Of a stretch of DNA of 51,677 bases, positions 6,562 to 47,499 are shown one piece after another. The first letter of the stretch is position 1; every line of letters begins with the position of its first letter. Under the pieces are notes generated by a model that made no database searches, was not told the origin of the DNA, and was given only the letters and a program-made list of their open reading frames with translations. Source of the DNA: a virus. The translations under genes were made by a program, and so were the position numbers. The stretch is taken from the IMG/VR virus record IMGVR_UViG_3300034175_000081. One strand, given 5' to 3'.

Positions 6562-8135
6562 ACGACAACTCGACGGCCTCGAACGTTGGCCAAATTGATG
6601 ACGGTGGCCCGCACGGTGACACCGCAGACACGATCGAACCCGAGGCGAGCGCGATTGATCGTTCGTGGTCGGCGTCGATCCTGGACGATTGGCGCAACGG
6701 GATGGCCGACAAGGCGATTGCGACGCTGGCCGTCGGCATCGAATGCCTATGCGATCACGCCGAAATCGTCGGAACCAGGTTCGGGATACCGTTCAGCGTC
6801 GAAACGACTCGGGAAATTCCGGCCACCAGCGACGAAATCGGAACCGCGCGCCCCGATACACCGGGCGAGGGTGCTTCGATGCCTGGCGGGCCGGAAATCG
6901 TGCCGAACGGCGATGGCACGTTCGCGGTAACGGCGCGGGGCCTGTTCATCCCGCGCGCAACGCTGTCGAGCGAGCCGCCGAAGACTGACGACAAGCCCGA
7001 CGCGAATAAATGGGACGGCTGGACCGAAGTCGGCCGGGCATGGCTGGCCAGCGGTGCGCCCCTCGGCGGGGCCGTGGTGGAACAGCCGGTGCGCGAGGCG
7101 ATCGAACGGGCCGTGGCCGAGGGTGCGACGAAGGCCATCACGTCACGGGATTTGCAGATCGCGGCCGGCCTGGACCCCGACGCGCCGTTCGAAGTCGGGG
7201 CGTTCCCGGCGGAAATGCGGCGGCACCCTGACCAGCTCGGCGTCAAGCTGGAACCGGTCGACCCGACACCCGAGGAACAGCGCGCCAACTTCGACCGGAT
7301 CGCGAGCGAGCCGCGGCCGAGCGCTGTCGAAATCAAAGAGGCGTTGGAAAGCCTGGAGTTCATCGACGCGCTACTGGTCGAACAGCAATATGACGAGTCA
7401 GCCGAAAACGTGCGCCAGGTCGCGACCATTCTCGACCGGCTCGGCGTCGAAGTGCTTCGCCAGGACATCACGGCCGACGAAGCCGCGGCGACGATTACGC
7501 GCCTGGAGGCGATGACCAGCCCGCCCGCCGACTTGGCCGAGCTGGTGCAAGAGGCCAGGCTGACCGCCGAACGTCGGGTCGAGCACGACCGGGGCGTCGC
7601 CGCGTTGCTGGAACGCATGATCGGCGCGCTGAACGCCGAGCGTCGCGCGCGGGTGACTGCCGAGGCCGACGCGAACCTGTTCAGTGACCAGCTCGACATA
7701 AAAACCGAAGCGCTGGCCGACATGGCGCGAACGCAACAGGTCGTCGGCCTATGCCGCCAGCTCGACGCCGAACGGGCCGCCCTCCAGGCGATGCGCGACA
7801 AGGTCACCGAATTGGCCAATGAGAACGCCGACCTAACGTTCCAGCTCGACGCCGCGAAAGAGGACGCCGCGCTACGGTTGCGCCAGTGCGACGAAGCCGA
7901 AGAGTCTTACCGCCACGCCCTCCACCAGGCCGAATGCAACGAAGCGCGGCGGCGTCGGACGAAGCGCAAGCTGAAACGGGCGCGCAAGTTGCTCGCCGAG
8001 GCCCCGACCTATGACGACAGCCGGCGCGACGCGGGAATTGTCGCCTGGAACGAAAGCCTTCGCACGGCGAGTCCTATCGGCGAATCGGTCGACGCCATCG
8101 CGGAAGCCCTCGGCATGCGGAAGGCCGGCGAATGA
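6558..8135 (+). CDS. Hypothetical coiled-coil protein (525 aa)
   Basis: ATG 6558 in an ATGA overlap with the Mor-like gene. Long GC3-rich ORF whose C-terminal half is heptad-like (LDAERAALQAMRDKVTELANENADLTFQLDAAKEDAALRL). Confidence 0.75.
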   Translation: MNDNSTASNVGQIDDGGPHGDTADTIEPEASAIDRSWSASILDDWRNGMADKAIATLAVGIECLCDHAEIVGTRFGIPFSVETTREIPATSDEIGTARPDTPGEGASMPGGPEIVPNGDGTFAVTARGLFIPRATLSSEPPKTDDKPDANKWDGWTEVGRAWLASGAPLGGAVVEQPVREAIERAVAEGATKAITSRDLQIAAGLDPDAPFEVGAFPAEMRRHPDQLGVKLEPVDPTPEEQRANFDRIASEPRPSAVEIKEALESLEFIDALLVEQQYDESAENVRQVATILDRLGVEVLRQDITADEAAATITRLEAMTSPPADLAELVQEARLTAERRVEHDRGVAALLERMIGALNAERRARVTAEADANLFSDQLDIKTEALADMARTQQVVGLCRQLDAERAALQAMRDKVTELANENADLTFQLDAAKEDAALRLRQCDEAEESYRHALHQAECNEARRRRTKRKLKRARKLLAEAPTYDDSRRDAGIVAWNESLRTASPIGESVDAIAEALGMRKAGE

Positions 8136-8368
8136 CGCCGTTCGCGCAAATCATCGTCGGCATATCGCTGGCCGCCGTCACAATCGTCATCGTCGGCCTG
8201 GTCGCCGGGGCACTCGCCGCGCTGGTCGTCAATCGCCTGGAGCGGCGGCGCGAACGCCACCTGGCCGACTTCGTGCGGCGGCACCCGTGGGCGGGACCGT
8301 CCCGCCCGACGCTCGATAGCGAGCTGAACAAGGATCGCAGCGGCAAGGAAGGGCGCGAGGCATCGTAA
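8132..8368 (+). CDS. Small single-pass membrane protein (78 aa)
   Basis: ATGA overlap. The N-terminal TM segment is FAQIIVGISLAAVTIVIVGLVAGALAALVV. Confidence 0.7.
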   Translation: MTPFAQIIVGISLAAVTIVIVGLVAGALAALVVNRLERRRERHLADFVRRHPWAGPSRPTLDSELNKDRSGKEGREAS

Positions 8369-8450
8369 CCGCTATTGCGTGGGAACGAATAAAGCGTATT
8401 GGGGGCGGGCCGGGTGACCGGCTCGCCCCTTTCCGCAAAAGGAACCACGC

Positions 8451-16027: not shown

Positions 16028-16885
16028 ATGACCCGCGCCCCGCTACTGTTCGACGCCAGCGAACGAACGTTCAACCCGACCAGCTTGCGGGTCGACGCGT
16101 CCGACCTGGTCCGGTTCATCGAAGCTAAGGACCCCCGCGCAATTGAGCGGTGGAACGACCTCGGCCCTGACGAATACGCCCGCGCCTTCACGGCCGCCGG
16201 CACCGCGGGCCGCGGGGTCATCGACGACCTATATTATGCCTATGTCGACACCCTGGAGCGCGGCGGCACCGAAGCCGACTTCGCTAAGGCCGTGATTCCG
16301 ACGCTCCAGGAAAAGGGATGGCTAGGCGGCGACAAGCGCGCAATCGCCCCGCGGGTTCACCTGATTTACGATACGAATTTGCGCCTGGCGCGTGGTGCCG
16401 GCCAATGGGATCGCATTCAAAAGGGCAAGGCGGCGCTCCCGTACCTTCGCGCCATCACCGCGCAGGACACGCGAGTACGCCGGCCGCCGCATTCGAAGCA
16501 TTCGGATCATCGGGCATGGGAAGGGATCATCCTTCCCGTGGATCATCCGTTCTGGACTCGGTATTGGGTGCCCCTCGGCTTCCGGTGCCGGTGCTCGATT
16601 ATCCCGATGACCCGATCGCAGCTCGCGAAGTCGACGGGGATCACCAGCGACGCCGAGCTGGCGCAACGCGAAGCCCGGCTCGGCCCGCCCGTGTTCAGCG
16701 CACCAGGCGGCGGCGTGTTTCAGCAACTATCCGAGGCAGTCAGGATAGAAAACGATCGCGACGACCGGATGCCCGGCCTTCCGCCCCTCGACCTGTCGGC
16801 CGATCGCCTGGCCGCGCGCGACCTATGGTCGGTTGAAACGGCCGCCCTTGCCGTCACGACTCTGTTCAATCGCATATTCGGCTAA
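16028..16885 (+). CDS. Head morphogenesis protein, Mu F / SPP1 gp7-like
   Basis: ITAQDTRVRRPPHSKHSDHRAWEGIILPVDHPFWTRYWVPLGFRCRCS matches the Phage_Mu_F pattern (D.rvR..H...dG......d.fW....PP....nCRC). Confidence 0.8.
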   Translation: MTRAPLLFDASERTFNPTSLRVDASDLVRFIEAKDPRAIERWNDLGPDEYARAFTAAGTAGRGVIDDLYYAYVDTLERGGTEADFAKAVIPTLQEKGWLGGDKRAIAPRVHLIYDTNLRLARGAGQWDRIQKGKAALPYLRAITAQDTRVRRPPHSKHSDHRAWEGIILPVDHPFWTRYWVPLGFRCRCSIIPMTRSQLAKSTGITSDAELAQREARLGPPVFSAPGGGVFQQLSEAVRIENDRDDRMPGLPPLDLSADRLAARDLWSVETAALAVTTLFNRIFG

Positions 16886-17133: not shown

Positions 17134-17547
17134 ATGGCCGCTTTTAATAAGTTCAATTCGTTCGTCGAGGCCATCGCCGAGAAGGGTCATAACCTCCAGG
17201 CTGACACCCTTAAAGTGATGCTGACGAACACGGCACCAGTCGCAACGAACACCGTCATTGCGAACATCGTCGAAATCGCGACCGGCAACGGTTACGCGGC
17301 CGGCGGCCCGCAAGCGACCGTGTCCAGCTCGGCGCAGACGGCCGGCGCTTATGCGTTGATCCTGGCCGACCTGGTCATCACCGCAGCCGGCGGTTCGATC
17401 GGTCCGGCGCGGTATGCGGTGCTCTACAATGCCACGGCCGGCTTGCTAATCGGCTGGTGGGATTATGGCGCGGCCTTCACCCTGGCCAGCGGGGAAACCC
17501 TCACGGTCGACTTCGACAACGCCGCCGGTGTCCTGACCCTCGCATAA
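17134..17547 (+). CDS. Hypothetical virion-associated protein (137 aa)
   Basis: SD gaagga. ORF track MAAFNKFNSFVEAIAEKGHNLQADTLKVMLTNTAP... First gene of the fibre/glycosidase cluster. Confidence 0.7.
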   Translation: MAAFNKFNSFVEAIAEKGHNLQADTLKVMLTNTAPVATNTVIANIVEIATGNGYAAGGPQATVSSSAQTAGAYALILADLVITAAGGSIGPARYAVLYNATAGLLIGWWDYGAAFTLASGETLTVDFDNAAGVLTLA

Positions 17548-17557
17548 GGCCGAACCG

Positions 17558-17800
17558 ATGAAGCTCCCCACGCCCGAAAAACTGCGCGCCCGGTTCGCCG
17601 AGCTGGCCGCCGATCGCGAAGCCGTGATGAACGCCACCGCGCCGTTGCGTGCCGAGCGCGACGACTTGTCGGCCGACACCGCGGCACGGGTCGCGCGCAT
17701 CGACGCGCAAATCGCCGAGCTGACCGAAGGGCTGTTCGACGCCGACAACGAAGCCGCCATGATCGCCCGCGCGCTCGGCGGCAAAACGGCCCTCGAATAG
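17558..17800 (+). CDS. Hypothetical helical protein (80 aa)
   Basis: ORF track; coiled-coil-like. Confidence 0.6.
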   Translation: MKLPTPEKLRARFAELAADREAVMNATAPLRAERDDLSADTAARVARIDAQIAELTEGLFDADNEAAMIARALGGKTALE

Positions 17801-18072
17801 TGGGCCTGGCGCGCAAAAAGGCCCCCACCGACGGCACCAGCGAAGCCGATTTCGACCCCTTGCGCCCGACGCGCACGCCGTCGCGGGTCGACATGGAGTC
17901 CGAGCTGAACCGCGACCAGGCCCGCGCGTGGATCGCGAGCGCGCGGAAGTTCAACCTGACCGGCAAGGAAGTGGCCTTCCTGGCCGGTATGGAAGCTGAC
18001 ATGCTGGTCACCACCTGGTCGCCGACGGTGCGCGAGTGGAACCGCCTTAACGACCTGGCCGAAGGATATTAG
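17800..18072 (+). CDS. Hypothetical protein (90 aa)
   Basis: GTG start sharing 1 nt with the preceding stop; ORF track. Confidence 0.6.
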   Translation: MGLARKKAPTDGTSEADFDPLRPTRTPSRVDMESELNRDQARAWIASARKFNLTGKEVAFLAGMEADMLVTTWSPTVREWNRLNDLAEGY

Positions 18073-18075
18073 GGC

Positions 18076-18807
18076 ATGATCGCCGACCGCGTATCTGTGA
18101 ACACGGCCACCGTCGGAACGGGCGCGGTCACCCTCGGCGCGGCCTTGCCCGGCTTCCGCAGCTTCGCGGCCGCCTTCCCCGCCCCCGCCACGACGACGGT
18201 CGATTATCTGATTGTCGAGGGCGTCAATTGGGAAACGGGAACGGGCGTGTTCACGCTCGCGACCGGCGTCCTGACCCGCACCCCCGTTGCCAGCTCGGCC
18301 GGCGGCGCGGCGATTGCGCTCGCCGGTGCGGCGGTCGTGTCGGTGTCCTACCTGTCGCGCACGAATGTTCCCGACTGGCCGGTGATGACCGTCGGCCGCA
18401 ACGGCGGCGCGACCGCCTTTCAAACGCTACCCGCCGCGTTCACGACATTGCAGCTAAACACCGCGCCGTCGATCGACACTCACGGCGGTTTCAGCACGTC
18501 GACTTACCTCTACACCGTGCCGGCCGGGCAAGATGGCGTTTACGATATTCAGGGCAAGATTCGGCCGATCGACGCGACGGCCGCAAGCCTCGGGTTCGGG
18601 GTCGGTATCGACATCGCGAACCAGGACACGCCCGATTTCCTTTGGACCACGACCAGCCCTAGCGCGCAGTCGGTAAGGCGGCACGGCAGCTACAATAGCC
18701 GGTTGATGCCGCTTGTCGCCGGCCAGCAAGTGCGGCTGTTCGGCTTCGCAGACGCCGGCAACCTGGCGATCGTCGGGGCCTCGCTAACCATCGCGCGGAT
18801 TCGATAA
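18076..18807 (+). CDS. Tail-fibre-like protein with a possible C1q/TNF-like C-terminal head
   Basis: Gly/Ala/Thr-rich N-terminus. The C-terminal STYLYTVPAGQDGVYDIQGKI...QVRLFGFAD resembles the C1q jelly-roll pattern (F.aP..G.Y.F...). Confidence 0.6.
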   Translation: MIADRVSVNTATVGTGAVTLGAALPGFRSFAAAFPAPATTTVDYLIVEGVNWETGTGVFTLATGVLTRTPVASSAGGAAIALAGAAVVSVSYLSRTNVPDWPVMTVGRNGGATAFQTLPAAFTTLQLNTAPSIDTHGGFSTSTYLYTVPAGQDGVYDIQGKIRPIDATAASLGFGVGIDIANQDTPDFLWTTTSPSAQSVRRHGSYNSRLMPLVAGQQVRLFGFADAGNLAIVGASLTIARIR

Positions 18808-21468
18808 GTGAGCGGGTTCGGTCCCGTCGCCGCGGGGCCGGTTGCGGCCGTTTCCGCCGACGCAATCGTGGTCGCCGCCACGCCCATTGTCGCGGCCGAT
18901 GTCGGCGCACCGTATCGCTACAATCAGGGTTACCCGACCCGCTATTTCCTCGGCGACACCTTTTCGTTCGCCTGGTCCGACAACAATGTCGATTACTCGC
19001 CGTCGAACGACAGCCGCGGTTTCCAGGGATCGACCCCGACCAGCAACATTTCGTTCAATAGCTGGAGCGGGTCGCCGCCGCTGAACAACATCGTGGGAAC
19101 GCTGGTCAACCGGATGCCGCAATTCGGCACCACGAACCAGCTCGGGACCGACGGCGCGAGCTATAAAACTGGCGGCCTCTTGTCGCAGGGCGGCACGCTC
19201 TACTTGTGGACCAGCCGCCATAAGTACGGGTCGAACGCGAACGGCAACATTCAGACCGCGAACAACGCGCAGCTAATCAAGTCGACCGACAAGGGGGTGA
19301 CCTGGTCGCCGCTCCCGCCGAGCACGGCCAACCCCTTCGCCGCGCCGATGTTCACCGACACGAAGTTCAGCACGCCTTGGTTCGTCCAGTACGGCAAGGA
19401 TGGCCAGGTTCCCGACGTGCACAACTCGGCGCTTTATGCCTATGCGCTGTCGAATAACGGGAGCTGGAACAACGGCGATTCAATGGTCATCGGCCGTTGT
19501 CTTCGCTCGGCGCTTCCGAACCTGTCGGCCGCCGATTGGTCGTTCTATCAGGGCGGCGACGGCATGCTGGACGCGTCGTGGGGCGCGCTCGCGACCGCCG
19601 CGACGATCGTCAATGATCCGAAAAAGGTCGCCGCGAACGGCGCGCAGTATATCCCGGCGACCGGCCGCTATGTAATGTTTCAGTGGCACTATCCGTTCGT
19701 CGTTGCCGCGCAAGACAACGTGTATGGCGGCCCCGATCCGAAGACCGGGAACACGGTTTGGTCGGTGTATGAAAGCCCGACGCCGTGGGGTCCCTGGACC
19801 AAGATTCAAACGATCAAGTGGAACCTGCTAGGCGTCTATAACGGCAACGTCATTCCGCGCAGCGTGTCGGTCGACGGCGGGAGTAACATCGTTGTCGCGG
19901 CCTCGGGTGACTACGGCGAAAGCGGCGCGACCGAAGGTTACTACACGCTGATTCAGATCCCCGTCGCACTCCGCACGACGGGCGCGCTTCCCGCCGAGCC
20001 GGTTTGCACGGCCGACCCCGTCATCACCGGCCTAATCAAGCCCGGCGAAGTGGTGACGTGTTCGCCCGGCACCTGGACGAATAGCCCGCACAGCTTCCTT
20101 TACCAGTGGCGGAACCAGGCCGGGCAATGGCTCTACCTGTCGAACAAGCCGACCTATTTGCAGCATCCCGGCGACGGCATCCCGCAATGCGATGTCGTGG
20201 CGATCAACGCGGCCGGCACCAGCGAGATTAAGCGGGTGTCGCACCTTGGCCAGGCCGAGCCGGCCGACCCGTCGGTTATCCGCGTCGGCTTCGACCTATC
20301 GCGCAAGGCTTTCCCGGTCGTGTTCTCGGCCGATTATCTGACCATCACGCAAACGGGTGACGGGTTCCAGATGACGCCGACCGTCTATAAGTCGGACGGC
20401 GCTTGGTATGGCGAAATGACGGTCAGTCAGGGGCCGGGGATCGCGATCGGCTTCGCGAACACGCTGTCGCCGCTGGTCCAGGCATATGCCGGGCAAGACG
20501 CGAATTCGATCGGCATGTATCAGGACGGATACGCCGGCAACAATGTGATCGGTTACCCCGCGCTAGTCGGGTCGTATGGCGCTGGCGCTGTCATCCGGTG
20601 GGCGATGAAGCCCGCGCTCGGGAAGGTATGGCTGGCGGTCAACGGCGGGGCCTGGAATGGCGACCCCGTCGCCGGCACCGGCGGCCTTGCGATCCCCGTC
20701 GCCGGTGGCGTCGCCCCTGTCGCGTACACCGACGCGCCCGGCGCTTCGGTCACCGCGAACAACGGATACGTCGCGACGACCTACGCGAAGCCGACCGGCT
20801 TTTCGACGCTCGACAGCCCGGCGACGAACAAGTCGCTGGTGGCGGCGCGCGGCGTGGTCACCGTCACCGGCCGGCCGTCGAACCTGGTCCGCGGGTTCCA
20901 GCTCGCCGCCTCGCGCGGGACCTTCACCGCGACCGGCCAGGCGGTCGGCACGTCGTCGGCTCGGGTGCTCCCGGCCGCGCCTGGTGCGTTCGTCATCACC
21001 GGCCAGGCGATGACCTTCCGCCGGTCCTATGCCCTGGCCGCCAGCTCGACCGCCGTCGCGTTCCAGGGGCGCGCGGCAACCCTGATCGTCGGCAAGCGGC
21101 TACAGCTCGCCGCCGGGTCGTTCGCCCTCACGGGCCTGGCCATGACGATGAACAAGCTCGGCGCGCTGTCGGTCCTGGCCGCCACCGGCGCGTTCGCGAT
21201 GACCGGCCAGGCCGCCACCTTCCGCACTGACCGCCGCCTGGTCGCCGATCGCCGCGACGTGGTGCTGACCGGGCGCGCGATGACCTTCCGGCGAGGGCTG
21301 AAAATGACGGCCGCGCCGGGCGCTTTCGCCTTCACTGGCAACGCGACGGCCTTCGCTCGCGTGTTCTTCGGCGTGCCCCCGGCGTCGATGACGATCCGGC
21401 TATATGACGACGGGCCGCGAGTCGTTACACTACGCGACAGCGGGGCGCGCTCCGTCACACTTTTCTAG
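18808..21468 (+). CDS. Tailspike-like protein: BNR/Asp-box beta-propeller (DUF4185/sialidase-like) plus a C-terminal 22-aa repeat array
   Basis: GTG directly after the previous stop. Asp-box S-T-D-K-G-V-T-W (19279..19308). The surrounding WSVYESPTPWGPWTKI and YYTLIQIP resemble DUF4185-type glycosidases. Repeats at 20830..21365. Confidence 0.75.
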   Translation: MSGFGPVAAGPVAAVSADAIVVAATPIVAADVGAPYRYNQGYPTRYFLGDTFSFAWSDNNVDYSPSNDSRGFQGSTPTSNISFNSWSGSPPLNNIVGTLVNRMPQFGTTNQLGTDGASYKTGGLLSQGGTLYLWTSRHKYGSNANGNIQTANNAQLIKSTDKGVTWSPLPPSTANPFAAPMFTDTKFSTPWFVQYGKDGQVPDVHNSALYAYALSNNGSWNNGDSMVIGRCLRSALPNLSAADWSFYQGGDGMLDASWGALATAATIVNDPKKVAANGAQYIPATGRYVMFQWHYPFVVAAQDNVYGGPDPKTGNTVWSVYESPTPWGPWTKIQTIKWNLLGVYNGNVIPRSVSVDGGSNIVVAASGDYGESGATEGYYTLIQIPVALRTTGALPAEPVCTADPVITGLIKPGEVVTCSPGTWTNSPHSFLYQWRNQAGQWLYLSNKPTYLQHPGDGIPQCDVVAINAAGTSEIKRVSHLGQAEPADPSVIRVGFDLSRKAFPVVFSADYLTITQTGDGFQMTPTVYKSDGAWYGEMTVSQGPGIAIGFANTLSPLVQAYAGQDANSIGMYQDGYAGNNVIGYPALVGSYGAGAVIRWAMKPALGKVWLAVNGGAWNGDPVAGTGGLAIPVAGGVAPVAYTDAPGASVTANNGYVATTYAKPTGFSTLDSPATNKSLVAARGVVTVTGRPSNLVRGFQLAASRGTFTATGQAVGTSSARVLPAAPGAFVITGQAMTFRRSYALAASSTAVAFQGRAATLIVGKRLQLAAGSFALTGLAMTMNKLGALSVLAATGAFAMTGQAATFRTDRRLVADRRDVVLTGRAMTFRRGLKMTAAPGAFAFTGNATAFARVFFGVPPASMTIRLYDDGPRVVTLRDSGARSVTLF
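20830..21365 (+). repeat. About 8 tandem, degenerate 66-nt (22-aa) repeats, consensus L.AA.G.F..TGQA.TFRR
   Basis: Units read from the translation: LAASRGTFTATGQAVGTSSARV / LPAAPGAFVITGQAMTFRRSYA / LAATGAFAMTGQAATFRTDRR / LVADRRDVVLTGRAMTFRRGLK / MTAAPGAFAFTGNATAFARV, and others. Confidence 0.8.
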
Positions 21469-21477
21469 GGCGGCGCA

Positions 21478-21864
21478 ATGGTGATTCCGACTTCCGCGAC
21501 GAAGCTCCCGCAGGACCTGGACCCGTTTGACGTGGATTGGTTCGGGGTCGACATTTCGCGCGGCGTCCAGGGGGTGACCCCCTTCCCGATCCTTGCGCCT
21601 GGCGAAAACGTCGCCGCGTTCACGGTCCAGCCGCAACCCGAGGCGGTCGACGCCGGGCTGATTATCATGTCGGGCAACGGCTACCCGCAAGCCGCCATCG
21701 TCGGCACGACCCTGTCGATTTATCTCGCCGTCGCCGAGGCGAAACAGAGCAATAGCAAGTTCGACGTGGGAATGTTGCTTGGCATCGAATTGAGCATCAC
21801 GACCGACGCCGTTCCGCCGCGCAAGAAACAGCGCACGTTCACCGTTCTAATCATCAATAAATAG
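21478..21864 (+). CDS. Hypothetical protein (128 aa), possible fibre adaptor
   Basis: ORF track MVIPTSATKLPQDLDPFDVDWFGVDISRG... Sits between two glycosidase-like genes. Confidence 0.65.
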   Translation: MVIPTSATKLPQDLDPFDVDWFGVDISRGVQGVTPFPILAPGENVAAFTVQPQPEAVDAGLIIMSGNGYPQAAIVGTTLSIYLAVAEAKQSNSKFDVGMLLGIELSITTDAVPPRKKQRTFTVLIINK

Positions 21865-21878
21865 GAGCGACCCGACCA

Positions 21879-23942
21879 ATGACCCGACAAGCCTTTCGCC
21901 TGGTGGGGGTCGGCCTTGCCATCTCCACCGCGGCCGCCTTCGGCCCCCTACTGACCGCGCCAATCGTCGCGCAGACGATCGCCGGTTGTGGCACGACAGC
22001 CATCCCGAAAACCGACCTGAACAGCATCGAACGGCTAACCGCCGGGATCGTGTGTCGCGAAAAGGCCATCACCAGCGGCAACGCCGGGATCGCGGTTCGT
22101 CGCGACCGGGTGAAGGCCCTCACGCCGGCCCCCACGCCCACGCCAGCCCCGACGCCAGCCCCGACGCCAGCCCCGACGCCGGCACCGACCCCCACGCCCA
22201 CCCCGACCCCCGTCGTGGTGACCTGGACGCCATGCGCGAAGGAAGACGCGGTTTGCACCCCGCCGGCCCCCGCCCTGGTGCGCTACGGCGTCGGCGACAA
22301 GTTCCGCTATCTGACCGCCTCGGCCCCCGTGACGTGCGGCAACAAGGTTTTCGGAGACCCGATCGTCGGCACCGTCAAGTCGTGTTCCTATTCGCTGAAC
22401 GCGCCCGTTCCCGCCGGCACCGCGGCCGCGCCGGCTGTCGTGGTATCGCCCACCCCGACGCCCGCGCCGACTCCTTCGCCGACCCCCACGCCCACGGTCG
22501 GCGTCGTGCCGGCGACCCGCATCGGCGTGAACGTCGCCCCGTCGAGCTATTACAACACCGAACGCATTTATGTGAATTTGGTCGAGGGTAGCGGCGGCTG
22601 GAAAGACTCGACCGCGGGGTGGGGATCGACCGCGGCGGAAAAGCTGAACGCGGCCGGCTTCCCGATCGTGGAAGGGCAATGGATGCCCCTTGTGCCGCCG
22701 CGCGAGCTTTGGGCGGGTGGGTCGGCGACGATCGCGTGCACCTGGTCGGGTGACGGCCAGTTCAGCGTCGATGGCATGGCGCGGGGTTGGCTCGCCGCAA
22801 GCGGCCAGTCGTTCACCGTGTCGGGGTTCGATCGCAGCAAGGGCGGGTTCCCCGCCATCCGCATTTCGCCCAAGGGGATGACGACCGCGAAGCCGCTGTC
22901 GTCGCTCGATTGCCGGGAAGCCGGCGTGCAAGCTGTCGGTCGGTTCGAACAGAAGTTCGTCGACGACATGAAGCCGTTCGCGGTGCTGCGATTCCTGGAC
23001 TGGAGTAGCACGAACGGCAATCCGGCAAGTGTGACGTGGGCGACGCGCGCGACGCCCGACCACGGCGGGAGCGACGGCACCCCCCTGGAATATATGATCG
23101 ACCTGGCGAACGCCGCGGGAACCGACGCCTGGTTCACGATCGCCTACAATGCCGACGCCGATTATGTTCGCCGGGCGGGCGAGCTGGTGCGGGATCGCCT
23201 GGCACCCGGTCACCGGGGATATTTCGAGCTGTCGAACGAAGTGTGGAATTTCGCCTTTTTGGTCGCTCGCCAGGCTGTCGAGGAAGGCGCGAAACAGGTC
23301 CCGCCCCTGTCGAGCGACTACTATTCGAACAACCCGCTTCGGTACGCGCAGAAGACAATCGAATTTCACAAGGTCCTAACCCCCGTGTTCGCGGCGAACC
23401 CGTCGCGCCTGGTGCGCGTCGTGGCGTCACAGAACGCGAATTCCTGGACCGTCCGCACGATCCTGGCGTTTCCCGGCCTGGTCGATTGGGTCGACGCGCT
23501 CGCGACCGCGCCTTACTTCGGCGGCGACATATTCAACGCCCCGAACGACACGGCCACCCTGGCCGACCTTCCCGCCGCCTTCGCCCGCCTGGAGGCGGGG
23601 CGCGTAAACTCGATTGCGAAGGCCCTCGAAAACAAGGCCGCGGCCGCCAAGTACGGCAAGCGATTCATCGCTTACGAAGCCGGGCAACATATCGTCGTGA
23701 AGCCCGGCCCCCTGGCCGAGGTTGCCGCGGCCATGCAGCGGTCGCCGTTGATGGGCGAGGCTTATGACCGATACCTGGCCGACTGGCGCGCAAAGATCGG
23801 CGACGACCTGGTGATATACGCGGCGACCGGGACAATCTCTCAATATGGTTCGTGGGGGATTCGTGAGTACGCCGGCCAGCCGATCGCCGAGACGCCGAAG
23901 CGGCGCGCGGTGCTCGACGCCATCGCGGCGACCGCGAAGTGA
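21879..23942 (+). CDS. Secreted modular glycoside hydrolase (clan GH-A-like TIM barrel) with a Sec signal peptide, Pro/Thr linkers and a Cys-rich module
   Basis: SD aggagcg. Signal peptide MTRQAFRLVGVGLAISTAAAFGPLLTAPIVAQ. Cys-rich module CAKEDAVCTPPAPALVRYGVGDKFRYLTASAPVTCGNKVFGDPIVGTVKSCSY. Putative acid/base FELSNEVWN (about 23222..23250) and nucleophile AYEAGQH (about 23670..23690). Confidence 0.75.
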   Translation: MTRQAFRLVGVGLAISTAAAFGPLLTAPIVAQTIAGCGTTAIPKTDLNSIERLTAGIVCREKAITSGNAGIAVRRDRVKALTPAPTPTPAPTPAPTPAPTPAPTPTPTPTPVVVTWTPCAKEDAVCTPPAPALVRYGVGDKFRYLTASAPVTCGNKVFGDPIVGTVKSCSYSLNAPVPAGTAAAPAVVVSPTPTPAPTPSPTPTPTVGVVPATRIGVNVAPSSYYNTERIYVNLVEGSGGWKDSTAGWGSTAAEKLNAAGFPIVEGQWMPLVPPRELWAGGSATIACTWSGDGQFSVDGMARGWLAASGQSFTVSGFDRSKGGFPAIRISPKGMTTAKPLSSLDCREAGVQAVGRFEQKFVDDMKPFAVLRFLDWSSTNGNPASVTWATRATPDHGGSDGTPLEYMIDLANAAGTDAWFTIAYNADADYVRRAGELVRDRLAPGHRGYFELSNEVWNFAFLVARQAVEEGAKQVPPLSSDYYSNNPLRYAQKTIEFHKVLTPVFAANPSRLVRVVASQNANSWTVRTILAFPGLVDWVDALATAPYFGGDIFNAPNDTATLADLPAAFARLEAGRVNSIAKALENKAAAAKYGKRFIAYEAGQHIVVKPGPLAEVAAAMQRSPLMGEAYDRYLADWRAKIGDDLVIYAATGTISQYGSWGIREYAGQPIAETPKRRAVLDAIAATAK
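22121..22212 (+). repeat. Pro/Thr/Ala linker encoded by a degenerate 12-nt repeat (ccagccccgacg)
   Basis: Encodes TPAPTPTPAPTPAPTPAPTPAPTPTPTPTP. A second shorter linker lies at 22447..22497. Confidence 0.85.
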
Positions 23943-24238
23943 CCGTCGTTCGCGGCACCGTAAACAACGGCTGGTCGAGCGACGTTGACTTGCCGTTCTA
24001 CAAGGGCGCGGCCGGCGCGCAGTTCGGCCCCGTGGGGCAAACGGACCCCGCAAGGGTGCGCTTCGGCTATGCCGGCGCGATCGTGCGGGACATGGTCGGG
24101 GCGAAGGGAACGGCCACCGTCCCCGACCCCCTGGACCCCGACAACATGATGACGGTCGCCGTGACGGTGACCGATGCGACCAAGAGCGATACCACGAAGG
24201 GCTTCGTGACCTTCACGGCCACAATCGACCGCGACTAG
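23939..24238 (+). CDS. Hypothetical protein (99 aa)
   Basis: GTGA overlap with the glycosidase gene. Its stop TAG and the convergent gene's stop share the tetranucleotide CTAG at 24235..24238. Confidence 0.6.
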   Translation: MTVVRGTVNNGWSSDVDLPFYKGAAGAQFGPVGQTDPARVRFGYAGAIVRDMVGAKGTATVPDPLDPDNMMTVAVTVTDATKSDTTKGFVTFTATIDRD

Positions 24239-24492
24239 AGCCTGGCCAGCTCGGCGGGGGTGCACTTTCGGGCACTCCCGCTAGGCGGTTGCCACCGTGG
24301 CAACCAGCGTTTCATTCCCCGCACCTGGCGGCATTGCCAGCAATCCACCGTCGGCGGGGCCGGCTCCAGGACTTCGGCCCGCGCGCCGCATTCGCACCCG
24401 TAGCACGCGACCGGCTGGCGGTTCGGATCGTCCGACGGCTCGGGTTTGGCCTCCAGCTCGGCCGCGAATTGGGCGAACATATTGTCGGTCAT
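24235..24492 (-). CDS. Small Cys-rich protein (85 aa), last gene of the reverse island
   Basis: ATGA overlap upstream. Cys pairs ACYGCECG and DCWQC suggest a zinc ribbon. Confidence 0.6.
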   Translation of the reverse strand: MTDNMFAQFAAELEAKPEPSDDPNRQPVACYGCECGARAEVLEPAPPTVDCWQCRQVRGMKRWLPRWQPPSGSARKCTPAELARL

Positions 24493-24695
24493 GTCGAGTG
24501 CCAGAAACAGCGGTCAGGGTCGGTGATGTCGCAACAGCCGCAATGATCGTCCGAGTCCCATTCGACTTCATGGCCGTCGTCGGTCCAGGCGATATGGGGG
24601 CCGGCATGGTTGACCGCCAGCGGGCACCCGCGCAGCTCGCCGAGCCGGTTTTCGAACGGCCGCCTGGCCGGGGGCAGGACATGACACGCGGTCAA
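24489..24695 (-). CDS. Small Cys/His-rich protein (68 aa)
   Basis: TTG start in a TTGA overlap. Contains DDHCGCCDITDPDRCFWH. Confidence 0.55.
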   Translation of the reverse strand: MTACHVLPPARRPFENRLGELRGCPLAVNHAGPHIAWTDDGHEVEWDSDDHCGCCDITDPDRCFWHST

Positions 24696-25042
24696 CGCAC
24701 GTCGGCCAGGTCGGGGTCGCTCGGGTCAACGCCGTTCGCCTCGGCCATCGCCCGATAATTGTCGAACAGCTCCAGGCCGCCGCTTCGGTCGAGCCGGTCG
24801 AGCCGGTGGAATGAATAGGCCAGGCGAACGGCAAGGTTATGATCGGCCCCGCGCTCCAGGAACCCGGCGCACGCCATCGCGTCGCCGTCGGAAGTTTTGT
24901 GGCAAGTGAATATGCCGAACGACATATCGCGCGCGGTGGCGGCCAGCTCGCGAAACCGGTCGGGTCGAAACTCGCCTGGCGGGACATCGGTTCGCCAGGG
25001 GCAATTCGCGCACGGCCGGCGCGTAGCGGGAAGGTCGTTCAC
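24692..25042 (-). CDS. DUF6283-like protein (116 aa)
   Basis: GTG 25042 in a GTGA overlap with the RNase H stop. Contains RRPCANCPWRTDVPPGEF...FTCHKTSDGDAMACAGFL. The family assignment is from memory of the CxxCPWR pattern. Confidence 0.6.
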   Translation of the reverse strand: MNDLPATRRPCANCPWRTDVPPGEFRPDRFRELAATARDMSFGIFTCHKTSDGDAMACAGFLERGADHNLAVRLAYSFHRLDRLDRSGGLELFDNYRAMAEANGVDPSDPDLADVR

Positions 25043-25632
25043 GCCCCGACCTCCCGAGCCTGGCGAAGGCGTCGGCTTTCCTGTTCGCCGATCATCGCTT
25101 CGTGTTGCTCTTTGCGCTCGCGCCGCCGCTGTCGGCCCGCCACCTGTTCGACTAAGGCGTTGTAACCGGCCGGCTTGCGACCGTCGCGAATGGCGCTGCA
25201 AAGATGATCGCACCGGATATTATGGATCGCGTGCGGGTCCGCGCTGTCTAGCCGCTGGTGCCCCCTTACCCATTTCGCCCGCAACGCGATCCCGTGTCGC
25301 TCGGCCAGGTCCAGGACATAGCCGACGGCCTTTCCGATCGTCGGACACTTCGCGTTGCGCGCCGCGCCGTTGATCCGGCCGACCGCGCCGCGATTATCCG
25401 AACGCATCGTGACCAGGTCGCCGCCCTCCACAAGGCCGTTGATGCGCGCGAAGTGAAGGGCGTTCGCCATTGCCGCGGCCTCGACAGCGGTCGACGACGG
25501 GAAGTTCCCGCGCAGCGCGCCGGCCGATTCGTGACGCTCATCACCGCGCAGCACGACGCACGCCCACGCGCCCCGGCCGCCCTTCACAATGCTGGCGTCG
25601 GTGTAAATGTCGACGTTCACCCGACCAGCCAT
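25039..25632 (-). CDS. RNase HI-like ribonuclease H with a basic C-terminal tail
   Basis: The DEDD catalytic pattern is recognisable: VDIYTDAS (D), STAVEAAAMANAL (E), TMRSDNRG (D), WVRGHQ...IRCDHL (D). The C-terminus is RQRRRERKEQHEAMIGEQESRRLRQ. Confidence 0.8.
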   Translation of the reverse strand: MAGRVNVDIYTDASIVKGGRGAWACVVLRGDERHESAGALRGNFPSSTAVEAAAMANALHFARINGLVEGGDLVTMRSDNRGAVGRINGAARNAKCPTIGKAVGYVLDLAERHGIALRAKWVRGHQRLDSADPHAIHNIRCDHLCSAIRDGRKPAGYNALVEQVAGRQRRRERKEQHEAMIGEQESRRLRQAREVGA

Positions 25633-25997
25633 TCGAGTTCGGCGCGAATGCCGGGTCGAAGGTCCGTGGCGATGCGCTTCGCGACCATGTCGGCGACAAG
25701 CCCCGACACGTAGTCGGCCGCCCCCTCCCGGCGTTCGGTGCCGCGGAATTCATACACGACGCGCGCGACCCGGTCGCCGACTTGCACGTCGAACCCCTGT
25801 CGCACGGTATAGGGCGCGACATCGAACGACCCGTCGCGGAACGACGACACCGAAAGGTCGGGACTGTCGGGAAGGTGCACGACATAGCCGGCCCTCCGCA
25901 ACAGCTCGGCCGCGTTGGCAATCTCGCGCTCGGCGGCCTCACGCTCGGCGCGTTTCCATTCCGGTTCGCGCCATACCGTTTCGGGGGTCCGCGTCAC
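25617..25997 (-). CDS. Hypothetical protein (126 aa)
   Basis: GTG 25997 in a GTGA overlap with the upstream small TM ORF. The 3' end overlaps the RNase H start by 16 nt. Confidence 0.55.
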   Translation of the reverse strand: MTRTPETVWREPEWKRAEREAAEREIANAAELLRRAGYVVHLPDSPDLSVSSFRDGSFDVAPYTVRQGFDVQVGDRVARVVYEFRGTERREGAADYVSGLVADMVAKRIATDLRPGIRAELEWLVG

Positions 25998-26161
25998 CAG
26001 TGCACCAGCCCGCCGGTGACGGCGGCCATGATGGCGGCCCCGATGACCGCGGCCACTAGCAACAGGATTCCGCAACCCTCGGCCGTCGTGATGCGCTCCA
26101 GGGCGGCGTCGGCGGGGTCGGGCTGTTCGGTGTAAGGCTCGCGCCCGCGATAGTCGGTCAT
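25994..26161 (-). CDS. Small membrane protein (55 aa; below the ORF-track cutoff)
   Basis: Hand translation gives MTDYRGREPYTEQPDPADAALERITTAEGCGILLLVAAVIGAAIMAAVTGGLVHW. ATGA overlap upstream (26158..26161) and GTGA overlap downstream. Confidence 0.5.
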   Translation of the reverse strand: MTDYRGREPYTEQPDPADAALERITTAEGCGILLLVAAVIGAAIMAAVTGGLVHW

Positions 26162-26436
26162 CGTGTTTCGCCTTCGATCATGCCGCGAATGCGGGCGGTT
26201 GAGTCTTCAAGAGCGGTTTCGGCGGCCAGCTTGCACGACACCTTCGCCAGGCGGGCGCGCAGCGGATTCGAGCGACCCTCGACCTGGTCGGCCAGGACAC
26301 CGTTTTTCAGCTCGGCGCACTTCGCCGCGGTCGCGGCCGCCTGGCGGGATAGGTCGCTTTCCTCGGCCACCTGTCGGCAACCCGACATTGCGAGGGCCGC
26401 CATTAGCAGCGCGCCACCTAATCGAACGGTCATCAT
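26158..26436 (-). CDS. Lipoprotein (92 aa)
   Basis: MMTVRLGGALLMAALAMSGCRQV has lipobox M-S-G-C. SD agaggg. The perfect dyad lies 13 nt upstream of the ATG. Confidence 0.7.
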   Translation of the reverse strand: MMTVRLGGALLMAALAMSGCRQVAEESDLSRQAAATAAKCAELKNGVLADQVEGRSNPLRARLAKVSCKLAAETALEDSTARIRGMIEGETR

Positions 26437-26449
26437 CGGGTCACCCTCT

Positions 26450-26466
26450 ATTCGTTGTGCGCGAAT
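26450..26466. promoter_or_regulatory. Perfect dyad ATTCG-N7-CGAAT within the island's 30-nt internal intergenic gap (26437..26466)
   Basis: attcgttgtgcgcgaat. In minus sense it reads CGAAT-agagggtgacccg-ATG, i.e. the dyad abuts the SD of the lipoprotein gene with a 13-nt gap to the start codon. Confidence 0.65.
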
Positions 26467-26673
26467 TCATTCGGCCCGTTTGGCCAGGCTGTCAATGACG
26501 ATCGCGCGCGGCCTGGCCTGGACGTGCTCGATGTCGACGGCGGCCGACCTGGCCACGGTGCGCGCGTGCGCCTCGGCGGCGGGCACGTTGTCGAACGGCA
26601 GATTGCCCCACTGGCCGGGAAGCGACAGTCGGACGCCGGGAAGGTGCCGGTGCGTGGTCAGAATGAATTTCAC
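26467..26673 (-). CDS. Hypothetical protein (68 aa)
   Basis: GTG 26673 in a GTGA overlap. Sequence VKFILTTHRHLPGVRLSLPGQWGNLPFDNVP... Confidence 0.5.
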   Translation of the reverse strand: MKFILTTHRHLPGVRLSLPGQWGNLPFDNVPAAEAHARTVARSAAVDIEHVQARPRAIVIDSLAKRAE

Positions 26674-26867
26674 GACTCGACCACCGCGCCGCAGACATCG
26701 CATTCGAGTTCGATCGCCAAGCACGGCCCGCAAGGCCCCCTGTCGCCGTAGCATTCACACCCCGGCGCGGACTCGGGATAGTGCATGTCGCCGATGCAAG
26801 GCTTGCCGTCGAACAGGGCGGCGGGGTTGCCGCTTGTGATCCGGTTGCACCGGTCACCGTCATTCAT
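26670..26867 (-). CDS. Small Cys-rich protein (65 aa, 9 Cys)
   Basis: ATG 26867 in an ATGA overlap. Sequence MNDGDRCNRITSGNPAALFDGKPCIGDMHYPESAPGCECYGDRGPCGPCLAIELECDVCGAVVES. Confidence 0.55.
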   Translation of the reverse strand: MNDGDRCNRITSGNPAALFDGKPCIGDMHYPESAPGCECYGDRGPCGPCLAIELECDVCGAVVES

Positions 26868-27052
26868 TCCGATTGGTTCGGGCATGTCCATTCCTTCGGC
26901 TCGCCGGCCTCGCGCCACGCGCGAATCGCCGGAAGGCTGGTCGTGTCGACGCCCGCCCGGTGGGCGCGCGCTATGATGTTCTGACCCGGCGGCAACAGCT
27001 TGAACACGTTGCGGCCGAAGGTCGACGGGAGGCGGAAGGGGCGGCGGTTCAC
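26864..27052 (-). CDS. Hypothetical protein (62 aa)
   Basis: GTG 27052 in a GTGA overlap. High GC3 in this frame (gtg aac cgc cgc ccc ttc cgc ctc ccg...). Confidence 0.5.
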   Translation of the reverse strand: MNRRPFRLPSTFGRNVFKLLPPGQNIIARAHRAGVDTTSLPAIRAWREAGEPKEWTCPNQSE

Positions 27053-27321
27053 CGCGCGCCAGGGCTGAACACGGCCAGGCCGCCGTTCGACCGGGCCGCC
27101 GCGATCAGCTCGCCCGCGACATCGTTCACCAGCTCGCGACGCTCGGCCGCAAGCCGCTCGGCCCCTTCGTATGCGTCCAGGGCATCGGCCGCCGTGGTCA
27201 GGGCGTGCGCCGCGACCGCCGCCTGGTGCGCCAGCTCCCGGTCGCCCGCCATCCGAAGCCCCACGGCGATGTTCGCCGAGCGCTTGGCCTGTTCGCGCAT
27301 GCTGTCGGTTAGGCGACTCAT
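27049..27321 (-). CDS. Hypothetical helical protein (90 aa)
   Basis: ATG 27321 in an ATGA overlap. Sequence MSRLTDSMREQAKRSANIAVGLRMAGDRELAHQAAVAAHAL... Confidence 0.6.
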   Translation of the reverse strand: MSRLTDSMREQAKRSANIAVGLRMAGDRELAHQAAVAAHALTTAADALDAYEGAERLAAERRELVNDVAGELIAAARSNGGLAVFSPGAR

Positions 27322-27506
27322 GCCGCGACCAGCTCGAAAAAGGCATCCTTGCCGATGCCGTTGGTTTGCGTGGCGACGACCCCGGCCGCGCCCGCGTCGA
27401 TCGACGAAACGCGGGTCAGCTTCACGGGGCTGCCGTCGGCATCCTTGCCGGTGATTGTCATCCCCGCGCCAGTGCGGCGCGCGGTCCAGTTCGTGATTCG
27501 TTGCAT
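27318..27506 (-). CDS. Hypothetical protein (62 aa)
   Basis: ATG 27506 with ggagg 7 nt upstream. Sequence MQRITNWTARRTGAGMTITGKDADGSPVKLTRV... Confidence 0.6.
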   Translation of the reverse strand: MQRITNWTARRTGAGMTITGKDADGSPVKLTRVSSIDAGAAGVVATQTNGIGKDAFFELVAA

Positions 27507-27565
27507 GTTCGGTTCCTCCAGTGGTGCGGGCACCATGCCCGCGGGGGGTTAAGAATTCGTGCCGC

Positions 27566-28309
27566 TTACGCCGCGATCCCCGTGATTTCGGGAAGGGGGC
27601 GGCGCGACATCGACAGCGTGAAGCCAAGCTCGCGTTCTTTGGCGACATAGCGGCCATATAGTTCGGGGTTCAGGCGGGCGGCCGTGGTCAAGTCGGCCTC
27701 GCTCGCCATGATGCAGAAGCAACAGGAAAGGCGGGTCATCCCGGCGGCATACGCCCAATGCGGGGTTTCACCGGCGGCGGCGATGATCGCGAAGACCTCG
27801 CGCTCGGAAACGTCGTGGATCGGAAGCCAATCGAACCATTCTCGGCCCGCCTTGCTGTTGCGATCGTTGCGCTTGAACGCGACCAGCTTCGCGCGACCGC
27901 TCGACTCTTGCGCGCGCATTCCCATACACATGACGACCTGACCGCTGAATTCAGGATGCGCGGCCAGGTAGCGGCGCACTTCGCGTTCGATCGGCCCGCG
28001 CTTAAGGTCGGACGTGCACTGGCGGTTAGCCGGCGAAGGGAACATGCCGCGGCGGTCGACCATGTCGAAAAAGGTCGACGCCGGCTTGGCGATCACCAGC
28101 GGAAGGCCCGCGGTCGTCGCCTCGATATGCTCGATAACGCCTTCCCATTCGACGCCCTCTAGCGACGCGTGCACGACCAGGATTTGCGAGTCCGGCACGA
28201 CCTGGCGAACGGCGAGGGTCATCGCCTGGCTATCCTTGCCGGCGCTATGCGACAGAACGAAAAGCGCGCCGCTGTCGCGAAGGGCGATAACCTGGTCGAG
28301 GGTTTTCAT
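27566..28309 (-). CDS. PAPS-reductase-family PP-loop protein (247 aa), first gene of the reverse island
   Basis: PP-loop LSHSAGKDSQAM (SGGKDS-like, about 28232..28255). C-terminal Cys cluster TRLSCCFCIMAS. Overall length and order are typical of phage PAPS reductase-like proteins. Confidence 0.8.
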   Translation of the reverse strand: MKTLDQVIALRDSGALFVLSHSAGKDSQAMTLAVRQVVPDSQILVVHASLEGVEWEGVIEHIEATTAGLPLVIAKPASTFFDMVDRRGMFPSPANRQCTSDLKRGPIEREVRRYLAAHPEFSGQVVMCMGMRAQESSGRAKLVAFKRNDRNSKAGREWFDWLPIHDVSEREVFAIIAAAGETPHWAYAAGMTRLSCCFCIMASEADLTTAARLNPELYGRYVAKERELGFTLSMSRRPLPEITGIAA

Positions 28310-28322
28310 CGTGGCGCTTCCT

Positions 28323-28339
28323 ATTCGCTGCTGACGAAT
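28323..28339. promoter_or_regulatory. Perfect dyad ATTCG-N7-CGAAT, 13 nt upstream of the PAPS-reductase-like start codon
   Basis: attcgctgctgacgaat. In minus sense it reads CGAAT-aggaagcgccacg-ATG, the same geometry as at 26450..26466. Confidence 0.65.
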
Positions 28340-28351
28340 GATCGTATCGGC

Positions 28352-28369
28352 GCGTTTTGGCCAAAACGC
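28352..28369. promoter_or_regulatory. Perfect 18-bp palindrome GCGTTTTGGCCAAAACGC midway between two dyads
   Basis: Read directly. The centre (28360/61) lies 29.5 and 27.5 bp from the centres of the flanking ATTCG-N7-CGAAT sites. Confidence 0.55.
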
Positions 28370-28379
28370 AACAGGAATA

Positions 28380-28396
28380 ATTCGCGCGCAGCGAAT
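28380..28396. promoter_or_regulatory. Perfect dyad ATTCG-N7-CGAAT upstream of the scaffold/capsid operon
   Basis: attcgcgcgcagcgaat, 61 nt upstream of ATG 28458. Confidence 0.65.
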
Positions 28397-47446: not shown

Positions 47447-47482
47447 CGTCGGCCCTCGCGTGCGGTGAAGTCGAACCGCATT

Positions 47483-47499
47483 ATTCGTTCCTGACGAAT
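47483..47499. promoter_or_regulatory. Perfect dyad ATTCG-N7-CGAAT in the divergent region 47447..47584
   Basis: attcgttcctgacgaat. It shares the extended form TATTCG-NNN-CTGACGAAT with the site at 28323. Confidence 0.65.

Follow-up and report, generated by a model that had tools for sequence, protein, structure and literature searches.

The viral record IMGVR_UViG_3300034175_000081 of IMG/VR carries a block of 13 small genes that interrupts the head genes and is read against them. We analysed the whole stretch of 51,677 bases (the window; GC content 66%), to which all positions refer unless a relative is named. The same 127 bases stand, as an exact direct repeat, at 1–127 and 51551–51677, the two ends of the window, which shows it to be a complete phage genome of ~51.5 kb assembled as a circle. 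The window is an entire metagenome contig from JGI, and near-identical contigs are present in the ENA and Logan assemblies. The block, with genes g01 to g13 numbered in the direction of reading, tiles 24235–28309 on the minus strand, with the Mu-F gene on one side and the scaffold and capsid genes on the other (Table 1). An initial annotation made from the sequence alone had described this arrangement, and it was borne out by the coding evidence. Every one of the 13 open reading frames (ORFs) has a GC content of 0.74–0.89 at third codon positions (GC3) and of ~0.5 at second positions, which is the coding pattern of this genome. An independent gene caller, run on the near-identical ENA contig, called 12 of the 13; the exception was g12, for which TTG is the only start codon.

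The genes are packed tightly. The nine NTGA start/stop overlaps listed in the initial annotation are all present and are joined by a tenth at 25617, making ten 4-nucleotide (nt) overlaps; g01 is not translationally coupled to g02, from which it is separated by a gap of 29–59 nt. At the far end, the annotated stop–stop overlap with the convergent plus-strand gene is present as well, and the same 4-nt convergent overlap is found at 6064–6067 of a related phage, L003. A consensus promoter and terminator scan revealed no terminator-like site at the CTAG or at either end of the block, and nothing meaningful within it. The convergent genes of L003 likewise have no terminator-like structure between them; transcription arriving from both sides would collide at the CTAG. 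Ten of the 13 products match no family. The PAPS-reductase-like protein, the RNase HI-like protein and the DUF6283 protein recognized previously were all recovered with Pfam, the first two also with PHROGs, and cysteine-rich mini-proteins are present (g05, g12 and g13, with 8, 6 and 6 cysteines).

Table 1. Features of the 13-gene block and of its surroundings. Percentages are amino-acid identities to the protein of the window phage; L031 ends inside the block, so that absence there says little, and the L030 fragment does not cover g01–g06.
Feature	Position	Strand	Description	Relatives
g01	27566–28309	−	PAPS-reductase-like PP-loop enzyme, 247 aa; first slot behind P1, variable cargo	L003, L024, L028 absent; L031 no match
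g02	27318–27506 (alternative start 27536)	−	62 aa; most widely conserved block gene	L003 54%; L024 similar ORF by eye; L031 56%; L028 45%
g03	27049–27321	−	90 aa, backbone; sequence looks helical; ATGA overlap with g02	L003 63%; L024 weak; L031 no match; L028 absent
g04	26864–27052	−	62 aa, possible helix-turn-helix	L003 82%; L024 absent; L031 no match; L028 absent
g05	26670–26867	−	65 aa, 8 Cys, variable cargo	L003, L024, L028 absent; L031 no match
g06	26467–26673	−	68 aa, backbone; −35-like box of P2 within its 3′ end	L003 62%; L024 59%; L031 52%; L028 weak (29%)
g07	26158–26436	−	Predicted lipoprotein, 92 aa, fast-evolving cargo	L030 53%; L003, L024, L028 absent; L031 no match
g08	25994–26161	−	55 aa, backbone; C-terminal hydrophobic stretch, read as membrane anchor	L030 45%; L003, L024 look-alike; L031 no match; L028 absent
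g09	25617–25997	−	126-aa ORFan	L030 89%; L003, L024, L028 absent; L031 no match
g10	25039–25620 (alternative ATG 25632)	−	RNase HI-like, backbone; basic C-terminal tail	L030 80%; L003 75%; L024 52%; L031 49%; L028 absent
g11	24692–25042	−	DUF6283 zinc-type protein, variable cargo	L030, L003, L024 absent; L031 no match; L028 64%
g12	24489–24695	−	68-aa Cys/His-rich ORF, 6 Cys, TTG start only; least certain block gene	L030, L003, L024, L028 absent; L031 no match
g13	24235–24492	−	85 aa, last gene, backbone; two CxxC pairs, 6 Cys	L030 85%; L003 52%; L024 51%; L031 no match; L028 absent
O1	28323–28339		Operator-like dyad; ends 13 nt before g01 ATG
O2	26450–26466		Operator-like dyad; starts right after g06 stop, ends 13 nt before g07 ATG
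Second dyad of divergent region	28380–28396		61 nt before scaffold ATG at 28458
18-bp perfect palindrome	28352–28369		GCGTTTTGGCCAAAACGC; centred between the two dyads ahead of g01
TTGCGT	28366–28371	−	−35-like box of putative P1; overlaps the palindrome
TTGACA	26490–26495	−	−35-like box of putative P2; 23 nt upstream of O2
CTAG	24235–24238		Overlapping stops of g13 and convergent 99-aa plus-strand gene (23939–24238)
Cro/YdaS-like gene, DNA methyltransferase, RusA, DUF1376 replication protein	2.3–8 kb	+
Small and large terminase, portal, Mu-F	11–17 kb	+
Mu-F gene	16028–16885
Large proteins	17.1–24.2 kb	+	No assigned role
13-gene block	24.2–28.3 kb	−
Head protease/scaffold, cement protein, major capsid protein, tail and lysis genes	28.5–48 kb	+
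HNH endonuclease, AAA_24, exonuclease VIII	Across junction	−

To place the block in its clade, we compared it with six related genomes or fragments. The capsid proteins of L003, L031, L024, L028 and L038 are 90%, 79%, 77%, 49% and 45% identical to that of the window phage, respectively; L030 is a fragment without the capsid gene, and a metagenome scan contributed just three useful loci. An opposite-strand block lies directly upstream of the scaffold gene in five of five cases (L030, L003, L024, L031 and L028). It spans ~7.5 kb in L024 and, with 13 genes, takes up all of the space from Mu-F to scaffold in L028; in L038 only ~650 bases separate the two genes. The same slot has no block in Rhizobium phage RHph_TM3_3_3 and holds ten small same-strand genes in Aminobacter phage Erebus. 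The content of the block differs in L003, L024, L030 and L028; it is variable between related phages, which supports the earlier description of it as an accessory island. From these alignments, the putative backbone in close relatives is made up of g02, g03, g06, g08, the RNase H gene g10 and g13, and the apparent swapped cargo consists of the PAPS-reductase-like gene g01, g05, the lipoprotein gene g07, g09, the DUF6283 gene g11 and g12. Judged by the same alignments, the block as a whole appears ancestral to this phage clade and not a recent island.

Each of the two gene chains of the block begins behind a repeated DNA signal. Chance alone would place 0.16 exact copies of the dyad ATTCG-N7-CGAAT in the genome, whereas five are present; with one mismatch allowed there are 11 copies, against 2.9 expected. 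The exact copies fall at four places: ahead of g01 (two), ahead of g07, in a divergent region at 2.2 kb and at 47 kb. O1 and O2, which had been noticed before, proved exact in sequence and in their 13-nt distance to the ATG. O1 is kept in L003 with the same 13-nt spacing, though a different first gene follows, and a dyad after g06 is found in L003, L030, L024 and L031. The palindrome GCGTTTTGGCCAAAACGC occurs once in the genome, and part of it is conserved in L003. Behind g06 in the window, at 7510 of L003 and at 2258 and 5600 of L024, the dyad is preceded by TTGAC(A/G) at a distance of exactly 23 nt; ahead of g01 in the window, and at the corresponding site of L003, it is preceded by TTGCGT at 26 nt. 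In the putative promoters, the dyad directly follows a −35-like box, a 17-nt spacer and a further 6 nt. Across the window, L003, L024, L030 and L040, the half-sites are constant and the 7-nt spacers are variable.

The remaining copies connect the block to other units of the phage. The region 2209–2260 has two dyads at a distance of 35 bp (2209/2244), of which one is exact and the other has a mismatch. A leftward operon (a 77-aa gene followed, across the junction, by the recombination genes) flanks it on one side and a rightward Cro/YdaS-like and replication operon on the other, and it looks like the main genetic switch of the phage. The Cro/YdaS-like gene at 2310–2627 adjoins these tandem dyads (Pfam match at 1.2e-4, below the cut-off); a scan of viral contigs for the Cro-like gene found nothing. 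At 47045–47499, among the plus-strand lysis genes, lies a single minus-strand gene (47045–47446) that encodes a 133-aa zinc-ribbon/treble-clef-like protein and has a dyad at 47483, in the spacer of its putative promoter. A TTG(C/T)CA box abuts the dyad at this gene both here and in the L024 phage (L040, 2900–3321); the zinc-ribbon protein is a candidate autoregulated regulator. This distribution points to a phage-wide operator. We infer that the dyad is a DNA operator placed over the −10/+1 region of sigma-70-type promoters and bound by one phage regulator, for which the Cro/YdaS-like protein, the zinc-ribbon protein and g04 are the candidates. The statement that the block has its own regulatory signals therefore needs qualification: promoter- and operator-like signals are indeed present, but the dyad is common to other transcription units. 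In L028 (6130–6160), the ATTCG dyad is absent and a different palindrome, TTTGCGTAACGCAAA, occupies the equivalent divergent region, which suggests that the regulator/operator pair has been swapped.

The position of the dyad also raises the question of whether it acts in mRNA instead, as a 5′ hairpin or as a translational operator beside the ribosome-binding site. At four sites in two phages it lies at a constant 13 nt from the ATG (14–15 nt in L024), and it abuts the Shine–Dalgarno sequence, as such an element might. However, the predicted RNA fold of the dyad, a 5-bp stem, is no better than that of shuffled sequences (z from −0.85 to +0.86), the half-sites are invariant, without compensatory changes, and the loop varies, and other copies lie 36–41 nt from a start codon or inside a promoter spacer. 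We regard an RNA-level role as highly improbable and favour the DNA operator.

The gene directly behind P1 encodes a PAPS-reductase-like enzyme. The g01 product matches Pfam PF01507 (PAPS_reduct) with E = 2.7e-12 and 47.5 bits, against a gathering cut-off of 22.5, and PHROGs family phrog_424 with 4.7e-40. Enzymes of this superfamily carry the PP-loop motif SxGxDS near the N-terminus; the corresponding S22-A-G-K-D-S27 of g01 is invariant among 11 phage homologues. Four further family-invariant residues, Cys98, Cys128, Cys196 and Cys199, would be compatible with an iron–sulfur (Fe–S) cluster. Among the defence proteins of PADLOC, g01 matches BrxP (3.5e-15), SspD (1.7e-12) and DndC (5e-8). Identification as the sulfur-metabolism enzyme CysH was rejected (NF002537, 22.3 bits against a cut-off of 154; ECGLH motif absent), as was identification as DndC itself (TIGR03183, 21.8 bits against 290.4). 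Family scans and PADLOC detected none of the DndC/SspD partners (cysteine desulfurase, DndD/E, SspB/C) among the island products, and a direct sequence search of g01 against solved structures gave no match. The family comprises 262 clusters at E ≤ 1e-30 and 2,361 at E ≤ 0.001; its members are mostly single-domain and most are ~250–300 aa long, which points to a large, little-studied family of stand-alone phage PAPS-reductase-like enzymes.

According to the initial annotation, the 13 genes would be one cassette for nucleic-acid modification or counter-defence, with the PP-loop enzyme, the RNase H and the zinc mini-proteins as cooperating parts. Tight packing and translational coupling would agree with this, as would the resemblance of g01 to BrxP, SspD and DndC, the link between a phage PAPS domain and escape from Dnd, and an N6_N4 DNA methylase gene within the L024 block (3880–4671, minus strand; Pfam 7.6e-28), the only product recognized in a Pfam scan of 18 variable L003 and L024 genes. 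The gene content of the relatives argues otherwise. L003 retains RNase H along with g02, g03, g04, g06 and g13 but has neither the PAPS reductase nor DUF6283, and two unrelated genes take the place of g01 behind the same promoter region; L028 has DUF6283 without RNase H or PAPS reductase; L030 has an unrelated 52-aa gene instead of g11 and g12. The lack of coupling between g01 and g02 points the same way. Looking outward from g01, we took 14 viral contigs and three isolated phages with a homologue of this gene and searched them with every island product by tblastn; g01 apart, no island gene was found in them. When the ORFs within 4 kb of the homologue were clustered, the 17 loci had no shared neighbour, the sole clusters being alternative-frame ORFs over the homologue gene itself, and the annotated neighbourhoods in the three isolated phages were completely different. 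Because no neighbour is conserved in 17 phage loci, a system of PP-loop enzyme, RNase H and zinc proteins does not emerge, and we consider a single cassette very unlikely. The earlier proposal is partly supported: cargo of the modification or counter-defence type does occur in the variable slots (g01; the L024 methylase) and has precedent in the literature, although the block forms no coherent cassette.

That precedent concerns a Vibrio phage, in which a fusion of a PAPS domain and a Dam methylase, together with an adjacent gene, gives escape from Dnd (Piel et al., 10.1101/2021.05.05.442762); it is the one experimental precedent for evasion of phosphorothioate defence by PAPS-type phage proteins. 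As in the present case, a phage-borne PAPS-family domain lies in a variable region and is swapped between close relatives. The likeness holds at family level: the Vibrio phage protein has 479 aa and is fused to a methylase, whereas g01 stands alone with 247 aa. By analogy with this precedent, DNA modification or interference with host defence of the phosphorothioate type is a plausible role for g01. Like DndC, SspD and BrxP, it belongs to the PP-loop ATP-pyrophosphatase superfamily and has conserved cysteines that could hold an Fe–S cluster; unlike them, it is much shorter, falls far short of the DndC cut-off (21.8 against 290 bits) and has no dndA/D/E or sspA/B/C nearby. A bolder reading goes further: the cassettes of promoter, operator and ribosome site would be fixed docking points for single, swapped counter-defence genes, g01 would be a new, partner-independent enzyme that modifies DNA or counters phosphorothioate defence, and the backbone with RNase H would serve an uncharacterized early function. 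We put this forward as a tentative possibility.

The RNase H gene, g10, is the only backbone gene with a family match. Its score against Pfam RNase_H (PF00075) is marginal (E = 1.2e-5; 26.0 bits against a cut-off of 25.8), and it matches phrog_531 of PHROGs with 9e-14. Escherichia coli RNase HI uses the catalytic residues Asp10, Glu48, Asp70, His124 and Asp134. In an alignment with the E. coli sequence, these align with Asp8, the Glu of STAVEAAA, Asp75, His121 and Asp138 of g10, and Asp8, Asp75, His121 and Asp138 fall in invariant columns. The protein thus has the Asp/Glu/Asp/His/Asp positions of bacterial RNase HI; it differs from the E. coli enzyme in being only 28% identical, in an insertion before the His and in a basic C-terminal tail of ~40 aa. 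A direct sequence search against solved structures gave no match. From the chemistry of its family, g10 would remove RNA from RNA–DNA hybrids during replication.

Such an activity invites the view that the block is a core replication or early module, with RNase H and its companions needed for DNA replication and some passengers among them. The intact catalytic residues agree with this, and RNase H is retained together with g02, g06 and g13 in L003, L024, L031 and L030; the dyad, moreover, recurs in the switch region at the head of the recombination and replication operons. Yet RusA, the DUF1376 replication protein, exonuclease VIII and AAA_24 are located elsewhere, the L028 block lacks RNase H and L038 is almost without a block, and the backbone genes are mostly tiny, lineage-restricted ORFans. 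A replication module is, in our judgement, unlikely.

The second operon opens with two predicted envelope proteins, in agreement with the lipoprotein and small transmembrane protein annotated earlier. The g07 sequence LLMAALAMSGC fits a PROSITE-type lipobox pattern in which the Cys is residue 20, and g08 ends in its hydrophobic stretch. Look-alikes of g08 with the same MNDYRNRPP start occur in L003 (55 aa) and L024 (51 aa), each after a dyad; g07 is absent from both phages. In L030, g07 and g08 are 53% and 45% identical to their counterparts beside a g09 at 89%, and the two envelope proteins therefore evolve fast. Assignment of g07 and g08 as spanins was rejected, since ORF translations place a lysis cluster, with a lipoprotein of its own, at ~45.4–48.0 kb. 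By analogy, a role at the envelope is plausible for the lipoprotein and the membrane protein, superinfection exclusion being one example.

These two proteins bear on the idea that the block consists of lysogenic-conversion morons, expressed from a prophage for the benefit of the host, with the lipoprotein and membrane protein serving exclusion. Besides their presence, the operator-type control and the opposite orientation in a late region with promoter-like signals of its own would suit morons. A moron is defined by its own promoter and its own terminator, however, and the block combines promoter-like cassettes with the lack of any terminator-like site bracketing it. A relative of the capsid was found in none of 185,579 bacterial genomes scanned, and hence no prophage copy was seen; general family scans, which covered part of the ORFs, found no integrase among the products scanned. 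Lysogenic conversion is accordingly an improbable explanation. The earlier comparison with moron-type cargo holds for the opposite strand and the promoter-like cassettes and fails at the two ends.

Weighing these alternatives, we assign a probability of roughly 0.6 to the following reading: the block is a clade-conserved pair of operator-controlled accessory operons with exchangeable cargo, whose genes act independently of one another. The two operons, g01–g06 and g07–g13, would be read against the structural genes in a cargo hot-spot between Mu-F and scaffold. Each would be headed by a cassette of a −35-like box, a dyad over the presumed −10/+1 region, a Shine–Dalgarno sequence and an ATG 13 nt after the dyad. 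One phage-encoded DNA-binding regulator would probably switch the block together with the units at 2209/2244 and 47483, because the same dyad marks the switch region and the zinc-ribbon gene. Within each operon, expression would be passed on through the observed 4-nt start/stop overlaps. The slots between the backbone genes, and especially the first slot behind each cassette, would carry exchangeable single-gene cargo, which in this phage would comprise a solitary Fe–S-type PP-loop enzyme, a fast-evolving lipoprotein, DUF6283 and cysteine-rich ORFans. The genes would most likely be independent in action and form no single machine, and some of the cargo plausibly serves counter-defence or DNA modification.

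Several points count against this interpretation. The promoters are deduced from −35-like boxes, have poor −10 matches and went unreported by the consensus scan. Of the candidate regulators, the Cro-like protein matches Pfam below the cut-off and g04 has a low-confidence model, and the uniform 13-nt spacing from dyad to ATG would also fit a role at the RNA level. The division into backbone and cargo comes from a small sample, six related genomes or fragments. With ten of 13 products outside any family, functional links between them may be hidden. Finally, the roles proposed for the PP-loop enzyme, including its function in defence or modification, the lipoprotein and the RNase H are drawn by analogy alone.

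Among known arrangements, the block can be compared with repressor-controlled anti-defence operons of the anti-CRISPR/Aca type. It shares with them short operons of small, fast-changing genes in variable regions, and its dyad may correspond to the inverted-repeat operator that overlaps the promoter at the head of such operons. A 2026 survey notes PAPS reductases in variable, Aca-regulated phage operons, where they are carried as cargo. Unlike those operons, the block has an operator in common with other phage units, and its candidate regulator may sit outside the operon. No known anti-CRISPR, Aca or anti-defence protein was recognized in the block; PADLOC covers defence proteins only, and no search was aimed at anti-defence families. 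The block also resembles hyperplastic or ‘moron’ regions such as the Mu-F-like/scaffold cluster of Aminobacter phage Erebus, in which the same slot holds many small ORFans that differ between relatives; it departs from that cluster in its opposite strand, its conserved promoter/operator cassettes and its conserved backbone.

We conclude that the block is no new multi-gene system. Variable accessory and anti-defence regions of phages are already well known, and current views are not overturned. If the favoured reading is right, the locus is a natural example of a phage clade with a fixed regulatory scaffold behind which accessory genes are exchanged. What remains of most note is the stand-alone PP-loop family, the DUF6283 fold and the cassettes of promoter, operator and ribosome site with swapped cargo.

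The g11 product matches the Pfam family DUF6283 (PF19800; E = 1e-34, 119.6 bits against a cut-off of 27). Cys11, Cys14, Cys47, His48 and Cys58 are invariant, and in the CxxCPWR motif so are Pro15 and Trp16, with Arg17 nearly so; the invariant Cys and His residues suggest a zinc site. The AlphaFold2 model is confident (predicted local distance difference test, pLDDT, 92.7). Foldseek found no fold neighbour for it in PDB and only uncharacterized phage proteins in BFVD; the g11 sequence had no match among solved structures, and the DUF6283 profile gave only noise against PDB. A confident model without a solved structural relative makes the family a candidate for structural work. Mycobacteriophages and an Acidobacteria phage carry DUF6283 too. 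In L003, an 87-aa protein encoded just upstream of the RNase H gene (6830–7093, minus strand) shows by eye the CxxC...F-x-CHK...C-x-G arrangement of DUF6283; it matches the profile weakly (E = 0.034 in a small search) and may be a distant relative.

The other products are small and restricted in distribution. For g02, neither Pfam nor PHROGs gave a family match; its identities in Table 1 are from tblastn, and the similar ORF of L024, noted by eye, lies at 7251–7421. The g04 product looks like a helix-turn-helix protein by eye but has no Pfam match even at E ≤ 1, and its single-sequence AlphaFold2 model, with two helices, is of low confidence (pLDDT 56.6), too low to serve as a query for structure searches. 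No homologue of g05 was found in the relatives checked (L003, L024 and L028). The ORF g12, with a GC3 of 0.79, is absent from every related phage and has one marginal match (E = 0.003) in an unrelated contig, with no credible homologue. A collection of 5.8 billion proteins yielded only two homologues of g09, each from this phage or L030, and g13 has just two others in a large protein collection. With two relatives each, their alignments are too shallow for structure prediction, and both appear to be lineage-restricted ORFans.

Scans of the whole genome for tRNA genes and Rfam families were empty. On the 3′ flank, the order from 28458 is head protease/scaffold-like gene, cement protein and major capsid protein. 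In L024, a 172-aa plus-strand ORF (7893–8411) that adjoins the scaffold gene resembles an HNH-type endonuclease by eye and has no Pfam match. On the other side of the block, the plus-strand stretch 17134–24238, between Mu-F and the block, amounts to a second insertion, which L028 lacks. It contains an 886-aa protein (18808–21468) with a sub-threshold DUF4185 match and a 687-aa protein (21879–23942, plus strand) without a family match. The latter, which is conserved in L003 (54%) and L030 (64%), seems to carry a secretion signal as well as linkers rich in Pro and Thr, and is an odd product for a phage ‘fibre’ cluster.

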